Source of the DNA: an uncultured Clostridia bacterium
GTDB taxonomy: Bacteria > Bacillota > Clostridia > Christensenellales > UBA1242
Direction: 5' to 3'
NCBI GenBank assembly: GCA_934746515.1
Contig: CAKVFH010000002.1
Location: 65,576 to 129,575 of the forward strand
Length of the DNA stretch: 64,000 nucleotides
The first letter of the stretch is position 1. Every line of letters starts with the position of its first letter. Made by a program: the position numbers and the translations under genes. This document shows, one piece after another, positions 1 through 44,762 of this stretch. The notes beneath the pieces were generated by a model. It saw nothing but the letters and a program-made list of their open reading frames with translations, did no database searches and was not told the origin of the DNA.

Positions 1-3000
1 GCTTCTTGTTTAGACATCTTGCTAACATCAGGAATTTCGGTAAGTTTGCCGTTTATGTTTTCCTTTGCAATAATATTTTGTTTTGCAGTTGAAACTATCT
101 TTTCACCATCAGTTTTCATTTCTCTGATGATGTTATCAAATTCTGTCTGATTCAAGTTGTTAAGAACTTTTCTGTTACTTGCTTGAGTTCTGAAATCTAC
201 TGGCATGTCAGTTATCTTTTTGTTTATGTCTTTCAATATATCTGAACCAGAAGAAATAAATCTTGAATAGTTGTTAAACAACCAGTTGTTTCTGTCAATT
301 TCACTAATATTGTCAAGTTCAGAACCATGGTTTTCAGCTTTATACAAAGCGCCAGCCTTTCCTTTGAACTCGTCATTATTCCAAATGAGTGAAGCAACTG
401 ATCTCTGACGCTCAAGTCCACCGTTTGCAATCATGTTTCTGTTTGCAACAGCAATTGCTTGAGCATAAGTCATGCTTTCTGCTTCTCTGTAAAGCTCACG
501 ATTATTTTCTTTGAATGAACTAATAACTTGTTGTTTTCTTTCAACTTCAGTTTTTGCTTCTTTACCTACACCGCTCTTTTCAACAGATTGAATTTGATCC
601 TTTGCTTTTGAGCTTAAATAGCTGTAAATGCCTTCAACAATTGCCTGTTGTTTTTCAGCTTCGGTTAACAATTGAACTTTCCCTGCAGCAGTTGAAATAA
701 CTTTTTCTGCGTTTTCACTATGTGAAGTTTGTTCAAGTTCTTTCTTAACTCTTTCGTTTGAAATAAGCATGCCTTGTTGTTGTTCATAAACTTCAGCACT
801 TTGTTTTGTTGTTGTTTGTTTTTGAAGAAGTGAATAAGCTTGTGAATCAGAAAGTCCGAGTTTTGCAGCATTCATAGCAAACAATGTTTCTGTGATTTCT
901 GAAATAAGTCTTTCTTTCAAAGCTTCGCCAGCTGGTGAATTTAAGAATTTAGAAATCAAATCCATTGAATTTATGTCAACATTGTTATTTTTAAGGATTC
1001 TTGTTGCACCAGTATCTTGAGCTGCAAGTTTTGCAAGAAGTGCATTTTGTTCAGCAATTGAAAGTGTCGCAAAACCATTTTGAGAAGTCTCTTGTTTGAG
1101 TTCCGCAAGTTGTTCTGCTGGAACAGTTTGTCTTAAGAACTCGGCAACTTGACTAGCATTTGTAAATCCTTGAGCTGTTGAGTTTAATTTAGAAATATCT
1201 CTTTCACCTGACAAGTATTGTGCTTTAAGATTATCAATAGCGCGTTCAGCGGTGGTGTTTGTAACTCCGCCAGCTTGCACACCTGATGTATAACCCATTG
1301 CCTGCAATTGCTTTTCAAGTGAAGCCTTTGTTTTGTTTGCTTTTTGCAAAGCTTCAAGCCTTTGAACTTTTGATGATTCTTCTTCAGCAAGTGCTGCTGT
1401 AATATTGATATTTTCAGCCTGTGTTTTACCAGTTTCGTCAAATGTGAAGTATTTTTTATTAACAGCATTTAAGAGTTTTTGATCAACCTTGATGCCTGCA
1501 GAATTTAAAATTTCTTTGTTTTGACCATTGCTATCAATGTATGCCTTCATTGCTTTTTCAGCAGCAACATTTGTGGCTTTGTCGCCACCTTCTTTGTAGC
1601 CGAACGACTCTTTAACTTGATTATACATTTCCGTTTGTTTTGATTTTGCACCAATCAATTCTTGAGCATCTTCGTCTGTCAAATTGCCATAGGCTTCATA
1701 ATCTTCAACAATAGATTGAACTTCAGGCGACTTCGATTTAACGCTTCCGAGTTTCGTGATATTTTCAAGAACACGTTCGTTTACTTGTTTGCCCTTTTCG
1801 CCGCCAGAAATATAAGCATCAATATTCTTATCAGTTTGCTTTCCAAGTATCTTGGCTTTTGAGTAGCCAACAACCACCGAAACAGCTTCATCACTAGACC
1901 AGTCAATATTCTGAATCTTATCTTGCCATGCTTTGTTCTGTTCATTTGAAATAATTTCATCAATAACGGCAGTATAACCCACTGAATCGGTATTCACTTT
2001 GCCATTTTCATGCTCGATTCCAACCGCATCCAAAACGAGTTGATTTGTGATTATATCTTTTTCTTGCTCGTTTGAATTTTGCATTATGGTTTTAACAAAT
2101 TCTTCGTTAGACAAAGACTTATTTGTTGTTTGAGAAAGAGCTGATGTTCTTGAATCGAGTTCTTGTGAGCGACGGTTTGCAAGTTCCCCAAGTTTTTCTG
2201 AAATATATTGTGGACTTGTTTTCTTAACTTGCGAAATATTCATTCCAGCTTCACCAAACATTCTGTTTATAAACATTTGATGTTCAGTGTTGCCATTTAT
2301 AAATTTATCTAATTCTGTGTTAAATTCCAAAGATGCGGAATCTTTTGAAAGAACTTTTGATTGAAGCTCAGAAAGCAACTGCTGTTCTCTTGCAATGTAA
2401 GCTTTGTTATTAGCAATGCCAAGAGAAACAAAAGCTTGTCCAACTTTTTCGCTATCTGATTTTGCCCTTAATTCAAGTTGCGCAACACCAGCTTTCGCTT
2501 GTTCAAATTTTTCTTTCTCTTTAGCTGAAAGTGTCTTGCCTTCGAGACCAACTTCAAGCTTGCTTAATTCAAAGTTTGCTTCACTAAATGCACTTTGAGA
2601 TCTAAAACTTTGAGTTTGTAATTTAGAGTATTTTGCAAAATTATCTTTTTCTTGTTGTGAAATTTCATTTACCAAATCAATTGGAGTATTTTTCATGATA
2701 GATTCAACAACAACAGTGTCTGCAGTGTTGTTTCTGATTGATGCAGAACTAAATTCTTGAGTCTTGCCTAAAATCTTTGCTTTAGCGTAAGCCACAAGGA
2801 CTTCTTCTGGATTATAAAGCGCTTTTTGAGTTAAGTCTGTAAATAATCTTCCGTTTTCGCTGTTTGGATTTGAATTGATTTCAGCAATAAGCTTTTTCGC
2901 TTCGTCTGAATTTATATCAACATTTCCATTTTCACCAAGAATATTGAAATATTTAGCAACAATTTTATTAACAATTTCATCCTTGTTTTCGGTTGACGAA

Positions 3001-6000
3001 TTCATGAATGCTGAAACAAGTTCTTTGTCTCCAAAACTTGCTTCAGAAAGTTGTCTTTCAGTTATTTGTTCTTGCTCTGTTCTTCCGTAAAGATTGCCTG
3101 TTGAAATTGCAGCAATATTTGCAGACAAGTGAGCTGAATAATCCATTTGTTGAGCTTTTGACAACAAATCAAATGCTTGAACTTTGAATGATCCATTTCC
3201 AACATGTTTTGCAGTTACAGCGGAAAGCTCTTTTGCATAATCTTGAGTCTTGATTTGTCCAAGCATAGAATTGCTATCTTTAACACCCTGCTTGATTGAT
3301 TCAAGAATAACATCATCTTTTGTGTCGTCTGTAATACGATATTGCGACTTAAACTCTTTAAGCTTTTCTGGATTATTTTGAAGGTAGAGATAAATTGCTT
3401 CTGCATTGATATCAGCATTGTTTTGTGCTCTATCAAACACAGTTTGATGATAATCACTACCTGTAATATTTCCAGTTGTTTCGTTTTGATAGTTAAGTGT
3501 AAGTGCATAGTTTCCGGCAATTGCTCGAGTTGTGTTGTTTTTGTAACCTGTTCTAACAATTGAATCCACAACAGCATCACTTGAAATGTCTTGATGTGAA
3601 AGAAGTTGAGCAATAGCAACATTTACGCTATCGTCTTTTGCACCTTTTCCGCGCACACTCATATCGTTTACGGTAAAGCCTAACCCCTTTGCACCAATTG
3701 ATATGCCAAGGTTCAAACCAAGACCATTTCTATCTGTGCTATTTTCAATAAGTCTAAGTTGGTCTTTAATTGACATGTTTGCATTTTCTTCAAGTTTTTG
3801 ATTGAATGTGTCAAGTTGTTCACTTGTCATCATTGACTTGTAAATTGCAATTTTTTGTTCATCTGAAATCAAATAGTTTGCGGCATCCAAATTATTAGTG
3901 CCCGTTGCTGTAGCAAATGATGAAAGAACATCAGCTGCAATAACTCTTCCGCCTGTTGTTCCCGACAAGTTTGCAACAGCATTTCTGTAAGCATCATTTG
4001 TGTTTGTGACAAAGTTTGAATCAGAAATTGCTTGATTATTTGCAATTTGAGCAGCAACTGCCATACGGTTTGCACCTTCAAGCATCAAGCCGTTTGCAAC
4101 AGCTTCATCAATCATTTGTTTGATGTTTGCTGGAAGTTGTGCATTATTTATAATTTGTTGTGTTTGTTCAGTTGAAACCACTTGACCAACACTTGGTCCA
4201 GTTGGAGCGGCTGAATAAGATTGGTAACCACCAACTTGCTGATTTCCAGCGTAAGATTGTCCTCCAACACGAGCGCCTGCAACTCTAACCTTTCTATTTT
4301 TAACAAATAGAGCACCGCCAACACCTGCAGCACCAAGTCCTGCAGCAAGTCCAACGCCGCCTATGCCGAGAGTTCCGGCAGTAAATGCAGCTATTCCGGC
4401 ACCTGCTGCAACTTTAAGAGCATTGCCGCCCCATTGCTTGATATATTGTGCTTTTGTTTGATCGTCTGCTGCTCTATATTTTCTAACAAGTCCGACACCT
4501 TTCTTTACTAGGTATGAACCAGCTAGAATTCCGCCAGCAGCAAGCACTCCAGTATTTGGAATTAACATTGCAGCACCAGCAGCCGCGCCAATCAAACCTT
4601 TAGCAATAACGCTGTTTCTTGCTTTCTTGATAGCAATTTTTCCTGCAGCAGCATTTCTTTGCTCTGATGTTAGTTTCCCAGCCATTGCATTTTGAACAGA
4701 CTTGAGCTTGTCACCTTTAAGCTTTTGCTCATCTTTTGTGACTTTGCCATTTTCATCAATTCTATTGATTGTCTGAATGACATTGCCTTTCTTATCTATT
4801 TTAAGATTATCAAAAGTCTGTCCGTCAGCTGTTGTAATTTTGCCATCTTCAAAGAATTGTTCATTCAATTTGGTTTCATCACCACTTTTGATAACATTCT
4901 TCAAAATTTCATTGTTGCTATATTCTGAAACACCATCATTTTTCAGACTTGCTTGATAAACTTCAGCTTGTGCTGCACCAGTTGCAGTAGTTCCACTTGG
5001 AGCAGTGAAAGGTTGAGCAAAACTTGGATTTCTTTCCGAAATTTGAAGTTGCCCTGCAGAAGATCTTCTAACCCTTCTTCTGCTTCTAGCAAACATAACA
5101 CCGCCAACACCTGCAGCACCAAGTCCTGCAGCAAGTCCAACACCGCCCATGCCGAGAGTTCCGACAGTAAAGGCCGCAATTCCAGCACCTGCTGCAACTT
5201 TCATCACTCTTCCGCCAAATCTTCTAATCATTTGGGCTTTTGTTTGATCATTTGCAGCTCTGTAGCGTTTAATTGCACCAGCACTCTTCTTTACTAGGAA
5301 TGAACCAGCCAAAATTCCGCCGGCAGCAAGAACTCCAACACCTGGAATTAACATTGCAATGCCAGCAGCCGCACCAATCAAGCCTTTAGCAATAATGCTG
5401 TTTTTTGCTTTCTTGATAGCAATCTTTCCTGCAGCTGAATTTCTTTGTGCTGATGTCAATTTTCCAGCCATTGCATTTTGAACAGACTTAAGCTCTTCAC
5501 CTTTAAGTTTTTTGCCGTCTTTCATAATATTGCCATTCTTAATTTCAAGGCCTTCAATTGTCTGTCCGTTCGCTGTTGTTATCTTGCCATCTTCAAAGAA
5601 TTGTTCATTCAATTTGGTTTCATCACCATTCTTGATAACATTCTTTAATATTGCACTATTACTATATTCTGAAACTGCATCTTGACCTGATTCAGCATTT
5701 CTTGCATTTGTTTGAGCTGCTTCAGCTTGTGCTGCACCAGTTGCAGTAGATCCTGCAGGAGCTGTCAAAGGTTGTCTCATTGTAGGGTTCATTTGTGCTA
5801 TTTGTAATTGACCCCTGCTAGCTTTTCTTGCCTTTAATTTATTAGCGGCAAATAGAACACCTCCAACAGCAGCTGCACCAAGCAAGCCACCAGTAAGCAC
5901 TCCACCTGCAGCAACTTTAAGAGCATTGCCGCCCCATTTTTTGATATATTGTGCTTTAGTTTGATCGTCTGCTGCTCTATATTTTTTAATAAGTCCTGCA

Positions 6001-9000
6001 CCTTTCTTTGCTAGGAACGAGCCACCTGCAATTGCAAGTGCAATTCCTGGTCCAATACCTGGGATAGCCAGCGAAACTGCAGCTGCAACACCAGCCAAAG
6101 CCTTTGCACCGAGACCGAGCAATGCATTTCGTTTTGCAATCTTACCTTCTGCTGTAGTTCTCTGATTGTCAGTAAGTTTTCCTGCCATTGCAGTTTGAAC
6201 AGCTTTGAGCTTGTCACCTTTAAGCTTTTGCTCATCTTTTGTGACTTTGCCATTTTCATCAATTCTATTGATTGTCTGAATGACATTGCCTTTCTTATCT
6301 ATTTTAAGATTATCAAAAGTCTGTCCGTCAGCTGTTGTAATTTTGCCATCTTCAAAGAATTGTTCATTGAGTTCATCTACATTGCCATTCTTGATAACAT
6401 TCTTTAATATTGCATTATCACTATAAGCAGATGCTCCAGCTTGTGCACCATTACCAGTTCCACCAGTTTGTGCGCCTTGACTTGCATCACCTTCAGCATT
6501 TCTTGAGTTTGCTTGAGCCGCAGCACCAGCAGCTGCACCAGTTGCAGTAGATCCTGCAGGAGCTGTCAAAGGTTGTCTCATTGCAGGGTTCATTTGAGAT
6601 ATTTGAAGTTGTCCCCTGCTAGCTTTTCTTGCCTTTAATTTATTAGCGGCAAATAGAACACCACCAACAGCAGCTGCACCAAGCAAGCCACCAGTAAGCA
6701 CTCCACCTGCAGCAACTTTAAGAGCATTGCCGCCCCATTTTTTGATATATTGTGCTTTAGTTTGATCGTCTGCTGCTCTATATTTTTTAACAAGTCCAAC
6801 GCCTTTCTTTGCTAGGAACGAGCCACCTGCAATTGCAAGTGCAATTCCTGGTCCAATACCTGGGATAGCCAACGAAACTGCAGCTGCAACACCAGCCAAA
6901 GCCTTTGCACCGAGGCCGAGCAATGCATTTCTTTTTGCAATCTTACCTTCTGCTGTGGTTCTCTGATTGTCAGTCAACTTTCCTGCCATTGCAGATTTAA
7001 CAGTTTGGAGATCTTTACCTTTAAGCTCTTTGCCGTCTTGCATGATCTTGCCGTTCTTAATTTCAAGATTTTCGAGAGTTTGTCCGTTTGCTGTTGTAAG
7101 CTTGCCGTTTTCAAAGAATTGTTCATTTAATTTAGTTTCATCACCATTTTTGATAACATTCTTTAATATTGCATTATCACTATAAGCGGATGCTCCAGCT
7201 TGTGCACCATTACCAGTTCCACCAGTTTGTGCGCCTTGACTTGCATCACCTTCAGCATTTCTTGAGTTTGCTTGAGCCGCAGCACCAGCAGCTGCACCAG
7301 TTGCAGTAGATCCTGCAGGAGCTGTCAAAGGTTGTCTCATTGCAGGGTTCATTTGAGCTAATTGCTGTTGTCCCTTATTAGCTTTTCTTACCTTTAGTTT
7401 ATTTGCAGCAAAAATTGTTCCACCAACCAAAGCCGCACCAAGAACACCACCGCCAAACACGAAGCCCGCACCAACTTTAAGTGCATTTCCACCCCATTTT
7501 TTAATGAGTTTAGCTCTTGTTTGATCGTCTGCTGCTCTATATTGTTTAATGAGTCCAACACCTTTCTTTGCTAGGAACGAGCCACCTGCGATAAGCACAC
7601 CAGCAAGTGGGCCACCAACTGCGGTTGCAATTGCAGCAGCTCCCAGAACGCCAGCTTTTCCAGCAAGTCCAAGAAGTGCACCTTTCTTTGAGCTTTGATC
7701 AAAACCTAACAAGCCATTTGCAACTTGACCGAACTTGCTATTTGCAAACCTATCAGGCAATGCGCTTGCTTCTTGAATACCAAATTTAACTCCAGCTTTC
7801 AATTTAGCATTTCTAACAGTTTTGTCATATTTCTTGGTTTGAGCGTCAACATTTCCTTCAGCAATTTCTTGGCTCTTATCAGACATAACTTTCAAAGCTT
7901 CTTTTCTTACTGCAAGACCTGTTCTTCCTTTCTCTTTCTGTTCTGCCATATAAGCATCATAATACTTTAATGCTGACTTTCCAGCTGCAGTGTTTTCAAG
8001 TTCTGCTTTAATCTTATCAGCATCTCCGTCACTTGAAAGGTTATTTATCTTACTCTTTAATTTTTCAGCATTTGCATCTGTTTTTTGTTTATCAGCTTCA
8101 GCATCGTCAAGACCCTTTCTAGAAACTTTTGCAATTTCTTCATTTTGCATTTCTTCAAGAGTTTTCTTTTTCTGTTCAACCTGTTCTTCAGTTCCATCTT
8201 TTATTTCATTTTCAACAGTCTGACCATTTTGGTTATAAGTTTGATTTACTGTTTCACCTGAACCACTATCTTTGCTATTATCAGACATATTAGAAATATC
8301 AGGATTTTGCTTTATGATATTTTCAAGTTCTTCTCTAGCAATTAGACGAATATGTTCATCGTCTGTACCAATGCCGCCTTGATATTCTTCACCATTATTA
8401 TCAACTTCATTTTCACCTGAAGCATTTACTGGTTCTTCCTCGGCATTTTCTCTGTTATTATTTTGAGACTCTTCACCAGTTCGCTGATTTTCTATGTTTG
8501 TCCTAGATTGACCTTCTGGGTTTTCATCCAATGGGCTCTTTGTTTCTTCAGCGGTTTGCCCATCTTTCTTTTCTTCATTTTCGTCTTTACCATTATCACG
8601 GCTGTTGCCTGCAGGTCTTCCACCAGCTGGGCCACCAGGACCACCAGAAGGACCACCACCACCGCCATCGGCGCCAGCAGCAGCACCAGCAGTTGATTCA
8701 ACACCTTCTTTAAATTTCTCGCCACCTTTCTTAACAGCACCAACAACTTTTTTGGCACCATCTATAATGAACTGCGAACCAGGGATAACACCCGGAGCCA
8801 TTGAAACGGCTTCTTTAAAGCCGCTTTTGAGTGATTTTCCGGAAATCATATCCGTTGCACTCTTCATTGTGGTTTTTACATTATTCTTGACAGCTGCACC
8901 GGTTTTATCCAAGCTTTGACCTTTTCCAACAAGACCCTGAACAAATCCAGGAAGCTCATTGATTAAAGTAAATGCAACAAGCAAGAACAAAATGTAAATA

Positions 9001-12000: not shown

Positions 12001-12446
12001 GCTTTTGAATTTCCTTTACTTCCATCACCAGTCATATAGTCCCATTCACTTTTGATGATTGCATAAATTGTGAAAATGATAAGCAAAACAACAAACACTG
12101 CAATCAAAGCTCTGAATACTTTTTGAACCGAGTCAGCATACAAGAATTTAAAAATCATATCTTCTGAAGTTGCTTCAGACAATTTTCTTGCACCATCTTT
12201 GCTGGAATCAAGCCAATAATCAAGACCAATCAGCTTTTGAATGAAATATTGCAGAAAGTCCATAAATGCAAGGAACCATCTACAAATGAAATAGAAAAAG
12301 TTGGCAAGCCCTTCAAGAATTTTTTGGAAAAAGTGTCCAAAAATATAGCTTCCCAAACCCTTTTCTGTTGATGGTAAAATCATCGACAAGATAAAGTTTG
12401 ATACAAATGAATAAATTTTGCTGACCAATGGCATAAATTCCCCCAT
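1..12446 (-). CDS. Giant polytopic membrane protein, >=4148 aa; C-terminus lies beyond the window edge (partial)
   Basis: Manual minus-strand translation from ATG 12446 (or ATG 12434, preceded by GGGGGA) reads MGEFMPLVSKIYSFVSNF... through ...LTEIPDVSKMSKQE at nt 3 with no stop (4148 full codons). It is missing from the ORF track only because it has no in-window stop. Every listed minus-strand ORF in 1-12446 sits in one other frame. Hydrophobic helices at ~12300-11890 and ~9370-8880, plus Gly/Ala-rich hydrophobic repeats at 7720-4290. Confidence 0.85.
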   Translation of the reverse strand, partial: MGEFMPLVSKIYSFVSNFILSMILPSTEKGLGSYIFGHFFQKILEGLANFFYFICRWFLAFMDFLQYFIQKLIGLDYWLDSSKDGARKLSEATSEDMIFKFLYADSVQKVFRALIAVFVVLLIIFTIYAIIKSEWDYMTGDGSKGNSKASIFRSSAKAIALVIVFPILLVMGIVSSNAILASIIKAVGVDMSDTFGGKIFSVSAQSANKYRHYVDNDTYYPTSDKVTFYLDDAHRQICFGDGIDDETHVYYQDYSCNDGVVTGRKSYLSVIKNARKITIDSIFDPLVPKDITNFNGFCFRAKDKDDKKQYYFVMASSDKAEGIYYYLKCVLGAEILTKNASWASDDVGKELLKNLESNFSALYDGTYLSSVNIHQGSETVRTVCRNSWNYSLIYVNPGISLSQAISSYGTQSLADFNLGAANYSGAIMYNSQSVASYFDGGQFGNVQSKAEYSVMADVIDYMCDNNLTFYIMDATSPLIDWNYKYKDASNNDASYCVDTKWISNKLSGTVADPTNPNIGNLGKSSYNIATNQVSNVATTLKDDSKVLTFLTKYAGNYTLPAESDNDIIYTAKFNTGDELAGSRYIVCLKGSEYFYPLVNGKDFRIDNKNYCFKSVYYASEYKGVVWAKGTFDTNTVDARYGNPTYLKNTSSVDNGKDSIVTDTDGGYYYDVKENGNDLILNTYDYYTRLVYNSALSNYLATYNNGSLYAEGERDLEIKTYKVNVDSTSDLQESEIVISLSSSSPFKSEYKLKWTGVTETVGGTKYYQFASAEKGFCYVIYVSGTSSYFKTKEVNGVLQVDTSKTYNNSSKGLYPCYLNGSASKEAKNLVLKSYTIKDYKIGDEAKSILKNTFSIFENTEDFYGTFTKSVLAQLNNLNFDVLKSTKYFDSNWGTRYYYIQNEGKMTPRPAFQTAGDSETAKGIFNNTLEVKLKSAEARMLEFYENAQTSDSVSCFRYQIENYSRNTFGCYLVEINIYLWKGIFEFKTGVVQQVSDTPVVSSTFKYSGNVSGITFDYFFDQNIKLQTFYAASGINYVLLLVASVLIIKVLFSALWGVIKRFYMITLYYLAMPVAASTMPIDDGKRFGDLREKIMGEVLSTYGVLIGLNVFFVLLAPIREISSTIFTEEAIANSGSYFLKKLPITANMLNELIYILFLLVAFTLINELPGFVQGLVGKGQSLDKTGAAVKNNVKTTMKSATDMISGKSLKSGFKEAVSMAPGVIPGSQFIIDGAKKVVGAVKKGGEKFKEGVESTAGAAAGADGGGGGPSGGPGGPAGGRPAGNSRDNGKDENEEKKDGQTAEETKSPLDENPEGQSRTNIENQRTGEESQNNNRENAEEEPVNASGENEVDNNGEEYQGGIGTDDEHIRLIAREELENIIKQNPDISNMSDNSKDSGSGETVNQTYNQNGQTVENEIKDGTEEQVEQKKKTLEEMQNEEIAKVSRKGLDDAEADKQKTDANAEKLKSKINNLSSDGDADKIKAELENTAAGKSALKYYDAYMAEQKEKGRTGLAVRKEALKVMSDKSQEIAEGNVDAQTKKYDKTVRNAKLKAGVKFGIQEASALPDRFANSKFGQVANGLLGFDQSSKKGALLGLAGKAGVLGAAAIATAVGGPLAGVLIAGGSFLAKKGVGLIKQYRAADDQTRAKLIKKWGGNALKVGAGFVFGGGVLGAALVGGTIFAANKLKVRKANKGQQQLAQMNPAMRQPLTAPAGSTATGAAAGAAAQANSRNAEGDASQGAQTGGTGNGAQAGASAYSDNAILKNVIKNGDETKLNEQFFENGKLTTANGQTLENLEIKNGKIMQDGKELKGKDLQTVKSAMAGKLTDNQRTTAEGKIAKRNALLGLGAKALAGVAAAVSLAIPGIGPGIALAIAGGSFLAKKGVGLVKKYRAADDQTKAQYIKKWGGNALKVAAGGVLTGGLLGAAAVGGVLFAANKLKARKASRGQLQISQMNPAMRQPLTAPAGSTATGAAAGAAAQANSRNAEGDASQGAQTGGTGNGAQAGASAYSDNAILKNVIKNGNVDELNEQFFEDGKITTADGQTFDNLKIDKKGNVIQTINRIDENGKVTKDEQKLKGDKLKAVQTAMAGKLTDNQRTTAEGKIAKRNALLGLGAKALAGVAAAVSLAIPGIGPGIALAIAGGSFLAKKGAGLIKKYRAADDQTKAQYIKKWGGNALKVAAGGVLTGGLLGAAAVGGVLFAANKLKARKASRGQLQIAQMNPTMRQPLTAPAGSTATGAAQAEAAQTNARNAESGQDAVSEYSNSAILKNVIKNGDETKLNEQFFEDGKITTANGQTIEGLEIKNGNIMKDGKKLKGEELKSVQNAMAGKLTSAQRNSAAGKIAIKKAKNSIIAKGLIGAAAGIAMLIPGVGVLAAGGILAGSFLVKKSAGAIKRYRAANDQTKAQMIRRFGGRVMKVAAGAGIAAFTVGTLGMGGVGLAAGLGAAGVGGVMFARSRRRVRRSSAGQLQISERNPSFAQPFTAPSGTTATGAAQAEVYQASLKNDGVSEYSNNEILKNVIKSGDETKLNEQFFEDGKITTADGQTFDNLKIDKKGNVIQTINRIDENGKVTKDEQKLKGDKLKSVQNAMAGKLTSEQRNAAAGKIAIKKARNSVIAKGLIGAAAGAAMLIPNTGVLAAGGILAGSYLVKKGVGLVRKYRAADDQTKAQYIKQWGGNALKVAAGAGIAAFTAGTLGIGGVGLAAGLGAAGVGGALFVKNRKVRVAGARVGGQSYAGNQQVGGYQSYSAAPTGPSVGQVVSTEQTQQIINNAQLPANIKQMIDEAVANGLMLEGANRMAVAAQIANNQAISDSNFVTNTNDAYRNAVANLSGTTGGRVIAADVLSSFATATGTNNLDAANYLISDEQKIAIYKSMMTSEQLDTFNQKLEENANMSIKDQLRLIENSTDRNGLGLNLGISIGAKGLGFTVNDMSVRGKGAKDDSVNVAIAQLLSHQDISSDAVVDSIVRTGYKNNTTRAIAGNYALTLNYQNETTGNITGSDYHQTVFDRAQNNADINAEAIYLYLQNNPEKLKEFKSQYRITDDTKDDVILESIKQGVKDSNSMLGQIKTQDYAKELSAVTAKHVGNGSFKVQAFDLLSKAQQMDYSAHLSANIAAISTGNLYGRTEQEQITERQLSEASFGDKELVSAFMNSSTENKDEIVNKIVAKYFNILGENGNVDINSDEAKKLIAEINSNPNSENGRLFTDLTQKALYNPEEVLVAYAKAKILGKTQEFSSASIRNNTADTVVVESIMKNTPIDLVNEISQQEKDNFAKYSKLQTQSFRSQSAFSEANFELSKLEVGLEGKTLSAKEKEKFEQAKAGVAQLELRAKSDSEKVGQAFVSLGIANNKAYIAREQQLLSELQSKVLSKDSASLEFNTELDKFINGNTEHQMFINRMFGEAGMNISQVKKTSPQYISEKLGELANRRSQELDSRTSALSQTTNKSLSNEEFVKTIMQNSNEQEKDIITNQLVLDAVGIEHENGKVNTDSVGYTAVIDEIISNEQNKAWQDKIQNIDWSSDEAVSVVVGYSKAKILGKQTDKNIDAYISGGEKGKQVNERVLENITKLGSVKSKSPEVQSIVEDYEAYGNLTDEDAQELIGAKSKQTEMYNQVKESFGYKEGGDKATNVAAEKAMKAYIDSNGQNKEILNSAGIKVDQKLLNAVNKKYFTFDETGKTQAENINITAALAEEESSKVQRLEALQKANKTKASLEKQLQAMGYTSGVQAGGVTNTTAERAIDNLKAQYLSGERDISKLNSTAQGFTNASQVAEFLRQTVPAEQLAELKQETSQNGFATLSIAEQNALLAKLAAQDTGATRILKNNNVDINSMDLISKFLNSPAGEALKERLISEITETLFAMNAAKLGLSDSQAYSLLQKQTTTKQSAEVYEQQQGMLISNERVKKELEQTSHSENAEKVISTAAGKVQLLTEAEKQQAIVEGIYSYLSSKAKDQIQSVEKSGVGKEAKTEVERKQQVISSFKENNRELYREAESMTYAQAIAVANRNMIANGGLERQRSVASLIWNNDEFKGKAGALYKAENHGSELDNISEIDRNNWLFNNYSRFISSGSDILKDINKKITDMPVDFRTQASNRKVLNNLNQTEFDNIIREMKTDGEKIVSTAKQNIIAKENINGKLTEIPDVSKMSKQE
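4290..7720. repeat. Intragenic tandem repeat array, ~5 modules with a 717-801 bp period, containing near-identical DNA blocks
   Basis: The AMAGKLT-encoding landmark recurs at ~4680, 5464, 6181 and 6982. Near-identical blocks: 4680-4870 vs 6183-6373, 5740-6193 vs 6541-6994, and 6391-6598 vs 7150-7357 (the last with about 1 mismatch). The duplicated antisense peptides in the ORF track (4692.. and 6195..) show the same thing. Confidence 0.9.
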
Positions 12447-12630
12447 TTATTTCTCTTGATTATTGTCTGCAATATTTGCAATATCTTTTGCATTTAGACA
12501 AAATCTGCGAAAAATATATATAATTATAATAAACCATAATTATTATAACATAAGGCATCAAAATATGACAAATAATTTACCGCAGATTTACAAATTATTT
12601 TATTATTTTTTTAGATTTTTTTTATTAAAA

Positions 12631-12662
12631 CAAATATCATACCCTTAAGGGTATGATATTTG
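12631..12662. promoter_or_regulatory. 32-bp perfect palindrome in the AT-rich leader of the giant ORF (operator or attenuator hairpin candidate)
   Basis: CAAATATCATACCCTT/AAGGGTATGATATTTG is perfectly self-complementary. It lies ~185 bp upstream of the ORF start. In minus orientation it is followed by TTTTAAT. Confidence 0.6.
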
Positions 12663-13047
12663 AAAATTTATTTTTATGATTTTATAATCATTTTTTACTA
12701 CTGTTTTTTAGCATTAAATTTTGTATTGATTTTTACCGCTCCGTTTCAGAATTTAAAATTAAAAATTTAAAAAAGTTTATACAATATAACCAAAACTTTG
12801 ACAGTTTTGATAATAAAAAACTCTTTCTAAACTGCAGCAAAATTGTAAAAATAACACGAAATAACCATAAAAATTACAATTAAAAATATCGGCAATTTGC
12901 ATAAAAAAGACTAAAATCACCAATCGAAAATATGTGTTTTTTTAATTTAATTTATTACTTAATTTTTCATTTTTAAGCTATATATCTTTACATTTCACAA
13001 CAACAATTTATCTAAAAAATCAAATAAGCAAAATTAACATAATAATA

Positions 13048-13083
13048 AGCAAAATAAAAAGAGAAGTTTCTTCACTTCTCTCT
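13048..13083 (-). terminator. Rho-independent terminator (second of two) after the pilin-like gene
   Basis: Stem GAGAAGT/ACTTCTC (13061-13080), followed on the minus strand by TTTTTATTTT. Confidence 0.65.
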
Positions 13084-13107
13084 TTATTGTTCTATTGATA
13101 AACTCAA

Positions 13108-13140
13108 AAAAATGCAAAATAAAAACACGCTTGCGCGTGT
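13108..13140 (-). terminator. Rho-independent terminator directly after the 13155 gene
   Basis: Stem ACACGC/GCGTGT (13125-13140), followed on the minus strand by TTTTATTTTG. It begins 15 nt after the stop codon. Confidence 0.7.
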
Positions 13141-13154
13141 CTTTATTTTTTTTC

Positions 13155-13487
13155 TTATTTAAGTTGGTCGCCAAACAATTTTTTAACAGCGCCACCATTA
13201 AGAACTGCAGCAATTACGGCTACGAAAACAATTGCAACCAAGAAACCAATAATGATATTGATAAGTTGTGTTTTTGCTTTCTTTTTGCCTTCATCATCTT
13301 CAGCTTTAGCAAAAGCAATACCTACTTTAACACCTAAAACTACGCCAAGAACAAGCAAGAAAGATGCAATTACAGGTAAAACTACGTTAACAATACCTTT
13401 GAATGTATTGTAAGCTGAATTGAAGATATCGCCTGTTGCTGAAATAACTACAGTATCATCAGCTAATAAAGAAAATAAATCTAACAT
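13155..13487 (-). CDS. Small 2-TM protein, VirB2/TrbC-type pilin-like (paralog 1)
   Basis: 110 aa. Two hydrophobic helices are joined by the charged loop GIAFAKAEDDEGKKKAKTQL, then IIIGFLVAIVFVAV. This is the TM / short charged loop / Gly-containing TM pattern of Gram-positive TrbC/VirB2-like proteins. RBS GGAGAAA precedes the ATG. Confidence 0.45.
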   Translation of the reverse strand: MLDLFSLLADDTVVISATGDIFNSAYNTFKGIVNVVLPVIASFLLVLGVVLGVKVGIAFAKAEDDEGKKKAKTQLINIIIGFLVAIVFVAVIAAVLNGGAVKKLFGDQLK

Positions 13488-13597
13488 GTTGAATTTCTCC
13501 TTTTTCTAATTTTATCTATTCGACTGACCTAATACTAGCACACTAAAAATCATTTGGCAAACAAATTTTAGTGATTTTCTTAATTTTTTTAAATTTT

Positions 13598-13897
13598 TTA
13601 GCCATCAATAAATCTTGCGAGTGGTTCCCTAATTGCATAAATTACCGCAATCAACACAATAACGGTTATTGCACCTATGCAAAAATTAACCAAAACTTTG
13701 TGAAGATTATCCTTTTCGCCTGGATCTTCCGCCTTTGCATACTTAACACCCAAGAAAATTCCCCAAAAGACGCTCAAGAGTAAACAAACAGAAATAGCGT
13801 AAGGCCCAACGAGCGAAATTCCATCATAAAGTGGAGATACAACTTCATCGCCTTCACCTAAAATAAATGCTCTAAATTGTGATAAAAATTCAAACAT
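13598..13897 (-). CDS. Small 2-TM protein, VirB2/TrbC-type pilin-like (paralog 2)
   Basis: 99 aa with the same layout as the 13155 gene. The loop GVKYAKAEDPGEKDNLHKVL is followed by CIGAITVIVLIAV. The shared AKAED motif marks the two as paralogs. Confidence 0.45.
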   Translation of the reverse strand: MFEFLSQFRAFILGEGDEVVSPLYDGISLVGPYAISVCLLLSVFWGIFLGVKYAKAEDPGEKDNLHKVLVNFCIGAITVIVLIAVIYAIREPLARFIDG

Positions 13898-14120
13898 AAA
13901 TAATCACCCCATCAAATCAATTCTATCTTAACAAAATTATGGCTCATTCGCAAGCAAATTTTGTTTGAATTTATTTTTAATTTTATTTTTGACCTATTTT
14001 TTGATAATTTTTAATAGTTAGGCCTCAGAAATTGAATTCTGGAATTGCGAGCTGTACAATTTTCTCAAAATTTAATTAAAGATAAATATTTAATAAATAA
14101 AAATTATTATATAAAATTAT

Positions 14121-14149
14121 TTGCGTGATTTTTTTTAATTTGGTATAAT
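14121..14149 (+). promoter_or_regulatory. Sigma-A-type promoter for the coupling-protein operon
   Basis: TTGCGT (14121-14126), 17-nt spacer ending in TGG (extended -10 TGn), TATAAT (14144-14149). RBS GGGAGA lies before ATG 14191. Confidence 0.55.
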
Positions 14150-14190
14150 TCATCATGTAAAATATTACTCTTTTATTTTGGGAGAAAATT

Positions 14191-16149
14191 ATGTCTGATA
14201 AGAAAAAATCTTTTGGTGAAGTCATTGGAAATTTCATATTTTGGCTGATAGTATTTGCGGTTGGAAGCTATATCGCTGGAATTATTATTGCAAAATATTT
14301 ATTTGGTACAGATTGGTCTTTTAATTCACAAGAGACTTTAACTGCAACATTTATTATATTTTCAGTTTCATTTCTGTTTTATTTGCTTCGCGACAAAAAA
14401 GACGATGTTTCATTCAAAGGTCAAAAAGATATGGAAAATCAGCACTTTGCTTCGCTTTCAGAGCTTGACAAGAATTTTAAGCATTGCAAATTTTCACAGC
14501 TTAAAAATGAAAACATAGTCGGTGTGCCATTTAGATTTGAACTTAAACATGGCGATTTAAACATTCACTTTACTCCACCATGCCACGTTTTAATTGTCGG
14601 TGCTTCTGGTACTGGTAAAACTGCATGCTGGGTTGAACCAACAATGCAAATCTTGACAGAACTAAAAAACAAGCCATCACTTTTTATTACTGACCCTAAA
14701 GGCGAAATTTTCGCGCACCATAGTTTAAAAATGAAAAATCAGGGCTACACTGTTTTACAACTCGATTTAACTCAACCTTATGCAAGCAAGCGTTGGAATC
14801 CACTTGAAAATATTTATGAACAATGGCAAAAAAGAAAGCACATGGAAGAAAATATTTTAAAGCACACCAACGATCCAATCAAAAACTACCCTAACCTTTT
14901 GAAAGCTGGCGATATCAACTCTGCCGAATGGTATGAGTTTATGGGCAAAGCATTTAACACACTTCGTGAAACTCTCATTGAAGTTGATGTTGAAAAACAA
15001 AAAATTAAAGACGATTGTTTGGAAAGTTTGCAAGATATTGCAGGTGCTATTGTTCCAACCGATCCTGATCCAAAGAACAAACAATGGTCTGATGGTGCAA
15101 GAGACTATTTCGAAGCCTGCATGATTGCAATGCTTGAAGATAGTGAAAATGACGCACTTGACATGACAAAAGAAAAATATAATTTCTTTAACGCATACAA
15201 AATTGCAATTAACAAAGATGATGACTATGCTGTTGTTAAAGATTATTTTTCAGGTCGTGACCCACTTTCAAAAGCAAAAGAACTTTCAACAAACATTGTT
15301 CAAACCAAAGCACAAGTTACTCGTGATGGTTATATGTCAACACTGCTCACAAATCTTGCATTGTTCTCTGATAATGGTATCTGTTTCATGACTTCAGCAA
15401 ACGATATTCGTTTCACTGAATTTGATGACAGACCAACCGCATTCTTTATCAAAATTCCTGATGAAAGAGCAACAAGATACAAACTTGCTTCTGTTTGTAT
15501 TTCACAATCCTACAAAGAGTTCGTTCAAAAATCTCGTGCAAATGAACTTGTGAACGATGATAAAATGGCACACTTAAAGCGCCCACTCTTCTATATTCTT
15601 GATGAGTTTGCCAATATGCCAAAAATTGAAGGTTTAAACAGAATTATCACCGTTGCCAGATCAAGATGGATTTATCTTAACATGGCAATTCAGTCTTATT
15701 CGCAGCTTGATGATGTTTACGGCAAAGAAGTTGCCGAAATCGTTCGTGGTCAGTGCCGTTCAACACTTTTCTATGGAACTCCTGACCTTAAAACTCGTGA
15801 AGAGTTTTCAAAAGAACTTGGAAATCACACCATTAAAGTTGATAGCAAAACTAAAAATGAAGGCGATGGAAAAACAAAAGGAACAACTTCAACATCAACA
15901 TCTCTTCAACAAGTTCCACTCATTCACCCATCAGAACTCGACAAATTGCCACTTGGACAAAACATCACAAACAACTTCCAGCAATATCCTTGCAAAGCTG
16001 TTGCAACACCATATTTTAAGTGCTTAAACATATTCAAAATAGGAGCCGTTCCAACAGAATTCATCCCTGGAAGAACATTCAAAGAAAGCGAAGTTTTCTA
16101 CGATATTAGAAAGAGAAACAGCATCGTTCTTGAAAATAATGAAGACTAA
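14191..16149 (+). CDS. Type IV secretion coupling protein (VirD4/TraG/ConQ-type T4CP ATPase)
   Basis: N-terminal TM hairpin. HVLIVGASGTGKT (Walker A) is followed by SLFITDPKGEIF. LFYILDEFANMP is the Walker B. Length 652 aa is typical of the family. Confidence 0.85.
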   Translation: MSDKKKSFGEVIGNFIFWLIVFAVGSYIAGIIIAKYLFGTDWSFNSQETLTATFIIFSVSFLFYLLRDKKDDVSFKGQKDMENQHFASLSELDKNFKHCKFSQLKNENIVGVPFRFELKHGDLNIHFTPPCHVLIVGASGTGKTACWVEPTMQILTELKNKPSLFITDPKGEIFAHHSLKMKNQGYTVLQLDLTQPYASKRWNPLENIYEQWQKRKHMEENILKHTNDPIKNYPNLLKAGDINSAEWYEFMGKAFNTLRETLIEVDVEKQKIKDDCLESLQDIAGAIVPTDPDPKNKQWSDGARDYFEACMIAMLEDSENDALDMTKEKYNFFNAYKIAINKDDDYAVVKDYFSGRDPLSKAKELSTNIVQTKAQVTRDGYMSTLLTNLALFSDNGICFMTSANDIRFTEFDDRPTAFFIKIPDERATRYKLASVCISQSYKEFVQKSRANELVNDDKMAHLKRPLFYILDEFANMPKIEGLNRIITVARSRWIYLNMAIQSYSQLDDVYGKEVAEIVRGQCRSTLFYGTPDLKTREEFSKELGNHTIKVDSKTKNEGDGKTKGTTSTSTSLQQVPLIHPSELDKLPLGQNITNNFQQYPCKAVATPYFKCLNIFKIGAVPTEFIPGRTFKESEVFYDIRKRNSIVLENNED

Positions 16150-16174
16150 AAATTAAATTACATTGGAGATAAGT

Positions 16175-18304
16175 ATGAATAAAATAAAAAAGTTTTTACT
16201 ATATTGCATATCGGGTTTGCTTGCATTTAGTTTTCTTATTTCTCCTTTTCCAAAACCAAACCAAAAAGTTGGCTCGTCTGTCGATATAATAGAAAGTGAG
16301 ATAATTGATGACAATGTTTTGAGTTATGTCACAATCTCAACAAACGGAAAAACTCTCACCACAAATGAGATTAAAACAATTGATTCCGATAATGACGGCA
16401 GAAATGATTCTTCTTTTATATTTGCAAACGGAACAATAACATTAAATTTAAAACCACTTCAATACAACTACAAACTAACCCTTGATGAGAGCTATTATTA
16501 CAAAGAAACAGAAACTGTGTCACTTGAAAAAGACACAGAAACAGGAAATTTCCCTTTATCATTTAAGTTTAAAGGCAAAGATTACAGTTATACAATCTCA
16601 GCTCAAAATATCTTAAATATTACATCAAGCCAAACACCAAACCCAATCGGCGAAAGCGATCTTATCAAAATGACTGACACAGAAAACACAAGAACCTTTA
16701 CAATCACAACCGGTTACACACTCAAAGCCGACGCACCAAATACTAGTTTTAAATTTATAGCAAGCACAAGCAATACAAAAGAATCTAACCAACAATATGC
16801 TTTAAATTTTGAACGCCCAGTTCTTGATTTTAGAACAGATGATGTAACAATGTTCACTTGCGTTGGTCTTGATGTTGGTTCAACTCCATTTGTAAACGAA
16901 AAAATTGAGCGCGAACTTTCTTATGAAAATGTCAAACTACAATTTACAAACAATAACTACACAGAAAACAACCCACTTTATTTTGACATCAACCACAATG
17001 GTTTTGTGTACACATTTAAACTCTACAGCAAAGAAATTAGTTCAAATCAATACTTATTTGTTGAATATTATGACGAACAAAAGCCTGTAAATAACACAAG
17101 TATTGCAACAAAAATCAATTCTAACACGGGAAATATTGATATTCCAGTTTACAAATTTGAAGGCGAAACAACAAACTTCAATATGTTTTCAATTGACTTT
17201 AAGAAGACCGGAAGATATGAAATTTCTGTCTATGACGAAACCTACAATTTAGGTCTAAAAAACAACAATTACTACTCAACTTCATTCTATATTAAAAATA
17301 ACGAAAGTTCTGCATTTGACAACGCTTACGCAATCATGCAAAGTTATGACGACGAAAATAATTTTCTTGATTATATTGTTAGTGAGTCAACACAAAACAC
17401 AAATGTGGAAATCACCATCAAAAACTTAAGCTATTATTTTGAAAATGATGAAGCTATCAAAAATTTTGAACCAACCGAAACACTTTCAGACCTAAATGTT
17501 ATTGAATTTATCAAAACCACCCTTTCAGGAAGTTTAAACATTCCTGAATCAACTTTCTATTCGGTTTCTGACTTGAAAAAGATTCTGGAAAAAAATCAAA
17601 ACTTTTCAATTGACTGCACAGAAGATGCATTTTACGAAATCGTTATTTATCAATTTGATGAAACCGATTATTCAATAAAAGCAAAACACAGCTATCAATT
17701 CACAATTGTTAAACAGCCAAAAATCAGTTTTACTGTTTACAATGTAAATGAAGACAACGATCCAATTTATGACCCAGTAACAAACAGGCCAAAAACAATA
17801 ATTCATGAAGCTGACACACCATACACAACCGTACCGGAAAAATATAAAATCAATATTAACTCTGATATGGAAATTTCAACATTTTTCTCAAGCAGCGCAA
17901 CAAGCACAACTACTCATTTGGAAAAAACATACCTTAATGAATATACCATAAACTATGCTATGCAAGCCGTTAAAATTGATAAAGTTAATGTTACAGTTGA
18001 TGGCAAAAATGTGGAAGCTTTGGGTCTTCAATTCTTTGGTGTTGGCGAAATTGTAGCGGAAATCACAGTAAACTCTGCAACAACAACATTCACCATTAAA
18101 TCTGGCGAAACTTTGTCTTTCACAGAGTATGGAACATATTCTGTTAGAATCACCGACTCTATGGGAACAGTTGGTATTGGCGTGTTTAAGTATGAAAAAC
18201 CTGTCAGTGTATCAGCCATTATATTGATTTCACTTGTAGGCATAATTGCCCTATCAGTCGTATTATTTATCATTTCATCTCGTGGCAAAGTAAAAACCAG
18301 ATAA
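16175..18304 (+). CDS. Large surface protein with an N-terminal signal anchor and a C-terminal TM anchor; beta-rich repeats
   Basis: The ORF-track start (16163) is TTG. ATG 16175 is preceded by GGAGA. N-terminus MNKIKKFLLYCISGLLAFSFLI. C-terminus VSAIILISLVGIIALSVVLFIISSRGKVKTR. Recurrent motifs G-Y-E-I-S-V-Y-D, Y-E-I-V-I-Y and G-T-Y-S-V-R-I-T-D suggest Ig-like beta sandwiches. Confidence 0.7.
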   Translation: MNKIKKFLLYCISGLLAFSFLISPFPKPNQKVGSSVDIIESEIIDDNVLSYVTISTNGKTLTTNEIKTIDSDNDGRNDSSFIFANGTITLNLKPLQYNYKLTLDESYYYKETETVSLEKDTETGNFPLSFKFKGKDYSYTISAQNILNITSSQTPNPIGESDLIKMTDTENTRTFTITTGYTLKADAPNTSFKFIASTSNTKESNQQYALNFERPVLDFRTDDVTMFTCVGLDVGSTPFVNEKIERELSYENVKLQFTNNNYTENNPLYFDINHNGFVYTFKLYSKEISSNQYLFVEYYDEQKPVNNTSIATKINSNTGNIDIPVYKFEGETTNFNMFSIDFKKTGRYEISVYDETYNLGLKNNNYYSTSFYIKNNESSAFDNAYAIMQSYDDENNFLDYIVSESTQNTNVEITIKNLSYYFENDEAIKNFEPTETLSDLNVIEFIKTTLSGSLNIPESTFYSVSDLKKILEKNQNFSIDCTEDAFYEIVIYQFDETDYSIKAKHSYQFTIVKQPKISFTVYNVNEDNDPIYDPVTNRPKTIIHEADTPYTTVPEKYKININSDMEISTFFSSSATSTTTHLEKTYLNEYTINYAMQAVKIDKVNVTVDGKNVEALGLQFFGVGEIVAEITVNSATTTFTIKSGETLSFTEYGTYSVRITDSMGTVGIGVFKYEKPVSVSAIILISLVGIIALSVVLFIISSRGKVKTR

Positions 18305-44605: not shown

Positions 44606-44631
44606 AAGTTTTTCCTTTTTATTTATTTCCA

Positions 44632-44762
44632 TAAAAAAATCCCACATATAGTGGGATAAAAGTTCTATTCATCCCATAGAATTCAGCCTTTAGCACCTTT
44701 GCGTTTCGCTAGGTTGCTGTGTGGTCAACGGGGCTGTCCCTAACACACTCTTTATGGATAAA
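44632..44762 (-). promoter_or_regulatory. SAM-I (S-box) riboswitch with an intrinsic terminator
   Basis: The minus strand reads ...CCATAAAGAGTGTGTTAGGGACAGCCCCGTTGACCACACAGCAACCTAGCGAAACGCAAAGGTGCTAAAGGCTGAATTCTATGGGATGA. Then comes the hairpin ATCCCACTATATGTGGGAT followed by TTTTTTT. Confidence 0.85.

Follow-up and report, generated by a model that had tools for sequence, protein, structure and literature searches.

A vertically inherited, probably domesticated type IV secretion system with giant VirB6-like proteins in uncultured gut Clostridia

Nearly all known type IV secretion systems (T4SSs) of Gram-positive bacteria are conjugation machines carried on mobile elements. The repurposing of T4SSs in monoderms has been reviewed as a long-standing question, with Patescibacteria named as the sole system with VirB2-like pilins (PMC12857230). 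Here, a stretch of 64,000 nucleotides from an uncultured Clostridia bacterium (GenBank assembly GCA_934746515.1, contig CAKVFH010000002.1, positions 65,576 to 129,575; hereafter the window) is analysed, positions 1-18304 of which form the right-hand half of a T4SS gene cluster of about 40 kb; the left part lies beyond the window edge. The cluster is probably a vertically inherited, domesticated chromosomal T4SS of uncultured low-GC gut and rumen Clostridia, sharing ancestry with the mating apparatus of mycoplasma integrative and conjugative elements (ICEs). Full-text literature searches returned no description of such a system in Clostridia.

The nearest described system by sequence is the apparatus of mycoplasma ICEs (MICE), whose families NF045849, NF045848/NF045889 and NF045975 match components of the cluster at or near their cutoffs. 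Its parts are CDS5 (VirD4), the pilin-like CDS15/Mbov_0395, the VirB6-like CDS16/Mbov_0396, CDS17/Mbov_0397 (VirB4) and CDS19. Both systems have the gene order small two-transmembrane (2-TM) protein, polytopic TM protein, VirB4, further large TM protein, and both have a separate VirD4, a surface protein (required for contact in MICE), no VirB1 or VirB8 homologue and no recognised relaxase (PMC12857230, PMC6030558). MICE, however, are mobile, multi-copy and randomly inserting, carry a DDE transposase and live in wall-less hosts, whereas the cluster occupies a single site, is vertically inherited, has no transposase and belongs to peptidoglycan-making Clostridia. The Mbov_0396-type protein of MICE is compact, at about 300 amino acids (aa), whereas in the first giant protein of the cluster, G1, the module is split by a loop of about 815 aa and more than 2,900 aa follow it. 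Across the cluster the compact MICE module of about 320 aa occurs in three copies, interrupted by loops of 300-1,600 aa and joined to extensions that run to thousands of residues.

Conceptually, the closest systems are by analogy those of Patescibacteria and Rickettsiales. The T4SS of Patescibacteria (candidate phyla radiation) is, like the cluster, found in monoderms, chromosomal, lineage-wide and mostly relaxase-less, and both have tandem divergent VirB2-like pilin arrays detected by PF18895 (PMC12102498, PMC12857230). The Patescibacteria system has been proposed to be co-opted from a conjugation machine of the mating-pair formation (MPF) class FATA (PMC12102498, PMC12857230). Its loci differ in holding VirB1-, VirB3- and VirB8-like genes, their VirB6 proteins are not reported as giants, and their essentiality has been shown. 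The rvh T4SS of Rickettsiales is also chromosomal and vertically conserved with several tandem VirB6 paralogues, and these (RvhB6a-e, 674-1,154 aa) have large divergent flanking regions around a conserved core TM domain, as in the cluster (PMC2653234). In contrast to the cluster, rvh belongs to diderms, includes VirB8-11 and has VirB6 proteins that match PF04610, while the extensions of the cluster's proteins are 3 to 6 times longer. ConG (ICEBs1), TcpH (pCW3), Orf15 (Tn916) and F-plasmid TraG resemble the giants in being polytopic channel subunits with hydrophilic domains, and extended VirB6 proteins of MPF-FA systems reach 700-900 aa (PMC12857230). Unlike the giants, however, they are encoded on mobile elements together with a relaxase, a VirB1 hydrolase and VirB8, and no sequence or profile link from the giants to ConG, TcpH, Orf15 or TraG was found.

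The T4SS genes within the window are:
14191..16149, plus strand: VirD4/TraG-type coupling ATPase, 652 aa, two N-terminal TM segments (profiles, motifs)
16163/16175..18304, plus strand: surface protein of 709/713 aa, starting at 16163 or 16175, with an N-terminal signal/TM segment and a C-terminal TM segment
13598..13897, minus strand: pilin-like 2-TM protein, 99 aa (PF18895 14.4 bits; NF045849 22.4)
13155..13487, minus strand: pilin-like 2-TM protein, 110 aa (PF18895 22.8 bits, cutoff 26.6; NF045849 37.6, cutoff 40)
3..12434, minus strand: G1, extended VirB6-like giant, at least 4,144 codons visible, full length about 4,572 aa

On profile and motif evidence the identity of the coupling ATPase as VirD4 is unambiguous. 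It scores 153.8 bits against PF02534 (cutoff 20.1), 102.7 against PF12696 (TraG-D_C), 101.7 against PF10412 (TrwB_AAD_bind) and 251.3 against NF045973 (CD1115 family; cutoff 250), and its hydrophobic N-terminal segments lie at aa 7-25 and 48-66. The original prediction, made from the DNA without database searches, had named a coupling ATPase here from the motifs GASGTGKT, DPKGE and LFYILDEF; they lie at aa 137-144, 168-172 and 466-473, and the profiles agree. Members of the same VirD4 cluster occur on a contig of 1,169,107 bp.

Scanning one genome for each GTDB species gave 19 loci, every one of them in a metagenome-assembled genome of uncultured gut or rumen "Clostridia". The arrangement holA-x188-M28-rpsT-murI-surface protein-VirD4, with a divergent pilin-pilin-G1 unit, is shared by the window and, among the 12 GTDB species loci long enough to include this flank, by 11; the exception, L023, has extra genes at that flank and lacks rpsT and the surface protein. 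Where each side can be seen in relatives, the cluster is bounded by murI-rpsT-holA(-comEC) on one side and by fba/gap on the other. Pairwise identities of VirD4 follow those of the neighbouring M28 peptidase (Pearson 0.97, Spearman 0.84) and murI (r = 0.89), and neighbour-joining trees of VirD4 and of M28+murI have 5 of 9 splits in common (label-permutation P = 0.0005). VirD4 is 77-92% identical between species, which is the level of ribosomal protein S20 (rpsT, 74-95%) and above holA, while murI and M28 are 42-57% identical. Divergence equals or exceeds that of host genes in the surface protein (34-58% identity, syntenic in 17 loci), the pilins (45-75%) and the N-terminus of G1 (36-56%), which argues against recent horizontal spread. 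GC content at third codon positions (GC3) is 0.20-0.28 in the cluster and 0.283 +/- 0.023 in housekeeping genes; the higher GC of the G1 repeat region is due to its Gly/Ala codons. No plasmid in PLSDB matches G1, the plasmid VirD4s there are at most 30% identical, and no PHROGs family matches G1.

From this it is concluded that descent of the cluster is vertical and that purifying selection on it is strong. Having no recombinase and no relaxase, a fixed site and vertical descent, the system fails the definition of an ICE. The original prediction had left two alternatives, the edge of an unusually organised ICE or a domesticated or novel envelope-spanning translocation machine, and had proposed a comparison of related genomes as core or mobile; synteny, co-divergence, native GC3, congruent trees and the lack of mobility genes favour the second alternative and place the locus in the core genome.

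Hodor gut megaplasmids carry giant proteins of 7,309-7,704 aa (PMC12934698). An origin of this DNA in such a megaplasmid is rejected, the window being chromosomal and carrying rpsT, tmRNA, holA, pyrG and metK. One G1-type protein, P0062, has a length of 7,309 aa, equal to the lower size bound of the Hodor giant protein (PMC12934698), which may be a coincidence or the same protein.

The species of the window is not among the GTDB representatives and is present on several metagenome contigs; the G1 protein itself is absent from the word-indexed protein database. Its own left flank was therefore reconstructed from a same-species contig from a Hadza gut (L041), a same-species scaffold (L003) and the closest relative (L040); a metagenome scan using the C-terminus of G1 gave no match. 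In L040 the gene order is holA, x191, M28, rpsT, murI, surface protein, VirD4 and, divergently, pil99, pil110, G1 (3,839 aa), a 781-aa protein, VirB4 (896 aa) and a second giant, G2 (3,689 aa), and the next relative shows an identical order. More distant relatives have a first giant of 1,661-4,719+ aa with VirB4 directly next to it, and VirB4 follows G1 wherever the locus reaches that far. In three relatives VirB4 is followed by G2 (1,967-2,240 aa), G3 (811-1,055 aa) and then the genes for fructose-bisphosphate aldolase (fba) and GAPDH (gap); G3 is seen in more distant relatives only. Across relatives G2 spans approximately 2,000-3,700 aa and G3 approximately 800-1,200 aa. The alignment of VirB4 from relatives to NF045975, the Mbov_0397 family ICE conjugal transfer ATPase, runs from end to end (596 and 567 bits, cutoff 590; 155-170 bits against the CD1110 family), and the order pilin, TM protein, VirB4 is that of Mbov_0395-0396-0397.

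No relaxase, integrase or transposase family was found by Pfam on any called cluster gene in relatives or within positions 1-18304 of the window. The original prediction had seen no relaxase, VirB4 or integrase in this region; this holds for positions 1-18304, with the qualification that the absence of VirB4, which is present in relatives, is an effect of the window edge. To the left, where phage head or tail genes or a canonical ICE had been considered, relatives instead hold VirB4 and VirB6-like giants, and the cluster ends at fba/gap without relaxase, integrase or transposase.

The 781-aa protein corresponds to the last ~780 aa of fused giants: the window's clade has it as a gene of its own, and other clades have it joined to G1. 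In this soluble domain some His, Arg, Lys and Tyr positions are invariant; it matches no family in Pfam and nothing in the PDB, and is a candidate for a missing enzymatic function. It is found directly upstream of VirB4, at L040:21563-23908, at L007:15165-17507 and at the C-termini of the giants in L012, L013 and L016.

G1 lies in a minus-strand open frame of 4,148 codons (12446 to 3) which runs off the left end of the window. Translation probably starts at the ATG at 12434, which follows a GGGGGA ribosome-binding site and is consistent with how the gene was called in L040 and L041. On L041 G1 is called at 4,572 aa, and the scaffolded L003 gives the same full-length estimate independently. P0027, a ~90%-identical orthologue of 3,839 aa on a 327-kb scaffold of L040, reaches 432 aa past the window's end, placing the inferred stop about 1.3 kb to the left of the window. 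The parts of G1 are:
11877..12350, minus strand: N-terminal half of the VirB6-like module, aa ~33-190, TM helices 113-131 and 158-176
9420..11864, minus strand: large loop inserted in the module, about 815-830 aa, Cys/Tyr/Asn-rich (alignments)
8742..9419, minus strand: C-terminal half of the VirB6-like module, aa ~1010-1235, TM helices 1035-1053, 1059-1078, 1095-1113 and 1141-1167
7767..8741, minus strand: low-complexity Gly/Glu/Asn-rich linker, aa ~1236-1560 (read from the translation)
4194..7766, minus strand: five tandem repeats of 717-801 nt (239-267 aa) (repeat search)
3..4193, minus strand: helix-rich hydrophilic C-terminal region, aa 2752-4148+

Hydropathy places a hydrophobic helix at aa ~33-72 and TM clusters at aa 113-176 and 1035-1167, as in the predicted topology of the first ~1,190 aa (TM cluster, large loop, TM cluster, followed by more than 2,900 further residues). 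This polytopic form with a large loop, together with VirB4 downstream in relatives, is VirB6-like in topology and context. The first ~1,200 aa of G1 score 91.3 bits against NF045848, the MMCAP2_0566 family conjugal transfer protein (cutoff 90, thus borderline), and 48.7 bits against NF045889, the Mbov_0396 ICE transmembrane equivalog (under its cutoff of 70). Positions 165-319 of the NF045848 profile match G1 aa 1012-1180, while positions 2-160, the first half of the 322-position profile, match the N-terminal TM cluster of the paralogues G2 and G3, to whose N-termini the N-terminal module half of G1 is homologous. With the first half of the profile in the N-terminal TM cluster of the paralogues and the second half at aa 1012-1180 of G1, the compact mycoplasma module is here split by a very large loop. 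G2 scores 98 bits against NF045848 in L002 and 62 bits, below the cutoff, in L027; G3 scores 110 and 99 bits. Since G2 and G3 also carry the split module, the cluster has three extended VirB6-like paralogues, with loops of 300-1,600 aa across the three large proteins.

The large loop of G1 is probably extracellular. Alignments show its first ~480 aa to be conserved among orthologues and the remainder to be variable. An AlphaFold2 (AF2) model of the loop (aa 195-690) has a predicted local distance difference test score (pLDDT) of 60.7 and a mixed alpha/beta fold; Foldseek of this model gave no PDB match (best E 0.29) and detected no hidden wall hydrolase.

In each of the five repeats a KYRAADDQTKA loop is flanked on either side by an uncharged Gly/Ala-zipper block, and a small hydrophilic domain completes the unit; together the repeats hold 10 uncharged Gly/Ala blocks of 24-37 aa, in keeping with the 10-15 Gly-zipper segments of the original prediction. 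TRF missed the repeats, as their unit exceeds its 500-nt period limit, and a Pfam search of them gave no family. The repeat is restricted to the window's close clade, in 1-6 copies, with five in the window's G1 and three in P0027, and in the same-species scaffold L003 the repeat stretch is collapsed to a 100-N gap (2930-3029). The copy differences and the N-gap point to strain-level copy-number variation and a recurrent assembly breakpoint, and giants of the G1 family are therefore probably often truncated in databases. The C-terminal region aligns weakly to orthologous giants and is poorly conserved between species, with a single distant homologue, P0013, at 38% identity. Given that the repeat is limited to the close clade, the extensions are a fast-changing, lineage-specific part built on a conserved channel core.

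The VirB6-like module defines a large unannotated family. Its C-terminal half has 1,123 cluster representatives at E<=1e-3, 97 of them at E<=1e-30. The 145 newly fetched proteins among the 150 best module matches have a median length of 2,314 aa, with 85 above 2,000 aa and 19 above 4,000 aa; the longest is P0062, of G1 orthologue type (7,309 aa), and P0057 has 6,969 aa.

The two small proteins upstream of G1, noted in the original prediction as paralogous 2-TM proteins of ~100 aa and read there as VirB2/TrbC-like pilin, are indeed paralogues with 26% identity. Two TM helices joined by a short charged loop, a length of about 100 aa and a position inside a T4SS cluster characterise the family, both paralogue types are kept in every relative, and there are 2-4 pilin genes per locus. 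PF18895 (Pfam T4SS_pilin) matches 24 of 26 pilin-family orthologues at E<=0.01 (best E 8.7e-9), which supports the pilin assignment for the family, while the window's own copies fall under the curated cutoffs of PF18895 and of NF045849, the Mbov_0395 family pilin-like conjugal transfer protein. A search of the pilin profile against PDB gave noise only.

The loop between the Gly-zipper blocks (KKYRAADDQTKA, G1 aa 1635-1650 and repeats) resembles the inter-helix loop of the pilins (KYAKAEDDEGKK), KYRAADD in the repeat looking like KYAKAED in the pilin. The idea that the repeats are fused pilin hairpins was unsupported, with an hhalign probability of 2.9%.

The surface protein has hydrophobic segments at aa 8-26 and, as a C-terminal TM segment, at aa 686-704, matches no family in Pfam, NCBIfam or PHROGs searches, evolves fast and is a candidate adhesin. 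Hydrophobic segments at both ends are as expected for the 710-aa doubly anchored protein first proposed, but it may instead be a cleaved type I protein.

Signals for expression were located as follows:
14121..14149, plus strand: candidate VirD4 promoter TTGCGT-17-TATAAT, 42 nt before the ATG, missed by the generic scan
13925..13953, minus strand: candidate pilin promoter TTGCGA-17-TGtTAAGAT, read from the sequence and missed by the generic scan
13053..13149, minus strand: two intrinsic-terminator-like hairpins directly 3' of the second pilin gene
12631..12662, between the pilin and giant units: perfect 14-bp-stem palindrome CAAATATCATACCC-TTAA-GGGTATGATATTTG
12542..12571, minus strand: G1 operon promoter TTGTCA-18-TATAAT with an extended -10 (TGnTATAAT) (motif scan)

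The sigma-A-type promoter originally suggested for the unit of VirD4 and the surface protein is plausible, and the VirD4 promoter block is conserved across species; before the first pilin gene, other species have a GTTGC...TTTG-TAnnAT block like that of the candidate pilin promoter, again of sigma-A type. G1 has a near-consensus promoter of its own: the motif ATTTAT-TTGTCT-N13-TATG(T/A)TATAAT precedes G1 in 14 of 17 loci and is followed by a conserved leader of ~100 nt; the ~200 nt upstream of G1 (window 12447-12640; L007:4180-4403; L040:9780-10000) are ~90% conserved between species, whereas other intergenic DNA is unalignable. These signals fit ordinary expression by the housekeeping sigma factor. 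The pilins' own promoter and double terminator suggest high expression of the pilins, whose output is probably separate from, and higher than, that of the other units. In the region, 8 terminator-like sites were observed against 0.6 expected from shuffles. The stem of the palindrome is kept in L007 through compensatory changes (CC/GG to AT/AT), and the element resembles a bidirectional terminator or an operator. The G1 promoter lies between the arms of an inverted repeat, AAATCTGCG...CGCAGATTT, and GTCT...AGAC repeats occur in the 5' leader; the upstream repeats may be an operator or an RNA leader structure.

Several points weigh against the reading of the cluster as a domesticated T4SS with VirB6-like giants and pilins. 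The VirB6 assignment rests on a borderline NCBIfam score (91.3 against 90), topology and gene context; Pfam TrbL/VirB6 PF04610 gave no match to G1 at E<=1, and a search of the module profile against PDB sequences found no VirB6. Thus the VirB6-like module of the original prediction is retained on score and topology, while the expected Pfam link did not appear. The structural comparison it had proposed was suggestive at most: the AF2 model of G1 aa 1-1200 (12-sequence alignment) has a mean pLDDT of 42.6, too poor for firm claims on fold, and Foldseek against 350,542 PDB chains placed R388 TrwI/VirB6 (8rtd_L, 8rt9_F, 7o3v) and Legionella DotA at the top with E 0.28-4 and a TM-score of ~0.3 for this low-confidence model. 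The two pilin copies in the window score just below the curated PF18895 and NF045849 cutoffs, and similar small proteins of mycoplasma ICEs have been called VirB3-like (PMC12857230). Neither a VirB1-type hydrolase nor a VirB8-like protein was detected in the cluster, although this is, as murI indicates, a peptidoglycan-making bacterium, and the remaining cluster genes have no Pfam family on record. What lies to the left of the window was reconstructed from a relative ~90% identical and from more distant ones, not from the window's own genome. A relaxase could be encoded elsewhere in the genome or be hidden in the 780-aa domain, and since mycoplasma ICEs also conjugate without a recognised relaxase, its absence leaves DNA transfer possible.

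Of the alternatives, the one with most in its favour is a chromosomally fixed apparatus that is still conjugative and donates or exchanges chromosomal DNA within the lineage in the manner of chromosomal transfer in mycoplasmas or distributive transfer in mycobacteria, with an unrecognised relaxase or none. The machinery of mycoplasma ICEs, a homologue of the cluster, drives chromosomal transfer (PMC12857230), VirD4 retains its TrwB_AAD_bind and TraG-D_C domains, the conserved 780-aa domain beside VirB4 could be a novel DNA-processing enzyme, and a gene for a single-stranded DNA-binding protein (SSB) lies inside the cluster in the L002/L024 lineage. That SSB gene, however, is limited to one sub-lineage and stands beside a sporulation deacetylase gene that is unrelated, neither a relaxase nor an oriT was found, and conservation of VirD4 at the level of a ribosomal protein together with three hyper-extended VirB6 paralogues would be unusual if gene exchange were the only role; this explanation is considered rather unlikely. 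An ICE edge inserted site-specifically beside rpsT/murI and spreading horizontally among species would account for components that are all of conjugation type, with mycoplasma ICE families as the nearest named families, and for a VirD4 far more alike between species than the flanking genes, which recent horizontal spread could produce; an IS3 transposase is also present elsewhere in the window (61564-62712). Yet the whole cluster is bounded in relatives without integrase, DDE transposase or relaxase, both flanks are conserved housekeeping genes, and 43 kb separate the cluster from the IS3 copy. The distances between VirD4s follow those between their hosts, with congruent trees and native GC3, and the surface protein, pilins and G1 N-terminus are as diverged as host genes, leaving a mobile ICE highly improbable.

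A DNA-uptake (competence) T4SS like Helicobacter ComB, working with the nearby comEC, is suggested by the position of that gene 5 kb to the right (23017-24573) and by the ability of T4SSs to import DNA (PMC12857230). VirD4, however, is the most conserved component here. ComB systems are not known to include a VirD4 coupling protein, and comEC-holA-rpsT is ordinary Firmicute synteny; a role in competence is thus extremely improbable. The length of the giant and its hydrophobic Gly-rich repeats recall a phage tape-measure-like or tail protein in a prophage remnant, for which the searches gave weak Pfam noise matches only (Phage_GPL, E 0.084; XkdW, E 0.27). No PHROG family matches G1, and in every relative it is surrounded by T4SS and housekeeping genes and by no head or tail gene, so that a phage origin is refuted by context and may be set aside almost entirely.

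For a domesticated T4SS, a mechanism can be proposed in which a membrane-anchored VirD4 hexamer would select the substrate and VirB4 would power assembly and translocation. The three VirB6-like paralogues would form a membrane channel or stalk, with their large, fast-evolving loops and extensions projecting through the wall as a contact structure, and the pilin-like proteins may line or extend the conduit. The 709-aa surface protein could act as an adhesin, the role of CDS14 in mycoplasma ICEs (PMC6030558). Such an arrangement more likely mediates contact-dependent transfer linking this bacterium with other cells. As the cluster cannot be a self-transferring element, its role would be a function of the host cell. 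By analogy with Patescibacteria or Rickettsiales, a system for interaction with a partner or host is a plausible, if tentative, assignment; relaxase-independent exchange of chromosomal DNA of the mycoplasma kind is possible but doubtful, and some other role seems unlikely. Reduced-genome, possibly partner-dependent Christensenellales, family UBA1242, have been described from animal guts (PMC12306168), and the present lineage may be linked to that family. On a more speculative and rather improbable view, the cluster would play in Firmicutes the part of the essential Patescibacteria T4SS, as an intercellular conduit that defines the lineage and that its small-genome, partner-dependent gut Clostridia could not do without. 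The three VirB6 paralogues would then form a wall-spanning filament, maybe inserting into the target membrane, the pilin-like proteins would be true VirB2-type pilins of a Gram-positive cell, and the mycoplasma ICE machine would be a mobilised, stripped-down offshoot.

If the domesticated T4SS is real, the locus would be a second, independent case of a fixed and strongly constrained chromosomal T4SS with pilin-like genes and no relaxase, here in gut Clostridia of humans and animals and with a channel subunit that has been triplicated and enlarged to thousands of residues. The poorly understood machinery of mycoplasma ICEs would gain a relative that is not mobile, and the interaction of an uncultured lineage with other cells would become open to testing. 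With 1,123 cluster representatives of the module, and 85 of the top 145 above 2,000 aa, the locus also provides a functional context for many giant "hypothetical proteins" in gut metagenomes.

In the L002 (7566-8987) and L024 sub-lineage, genes for a PdaB-type sporulation polysaccharide deacetylase and the PRK05813-type SSB lie between VirD4 and the pilins. To the right of the T4SS genes, where murI and rpsT had correctly been read as the flank, M28 peptidase, holA and comEC follow beyond rpsT, and the remainder of the window is housekeeping (PFOR, PFL, metK, pyrG, tmRNA). The features placed there are:
18559-19311: murI, right flank of the surface protein gene
19352-19636: rpsT, right flank, next after murI
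23017-24573: comEC, about 5 kb to the right of the T4SS genes
43517-44647: metK, preceded by a SAM riboswitch
44671-44760, minus strand: SAM (S-adenosylmethionine) riboswitch, upstream of metK

Five conserved chromosomal open reading frames (ORFs) without a Pfam family, of 188-477 aa, are all on the minus strand (21414-21980, 24654-25235, 27111-28544, 38208-39395 and 45769-47055), and the 188-aa and 193-aa Pfam-less chromosomal ORFs are syntenic across the lineage. The IS3-family transposase (rve, HTH_21, HTH_Tnp_1; 61564-62712, plus strand) adjoins the tmRNA gene (62743-63107, minus strand), and GC content is low around the two, at 0.24 in the 60-62 kb interval.

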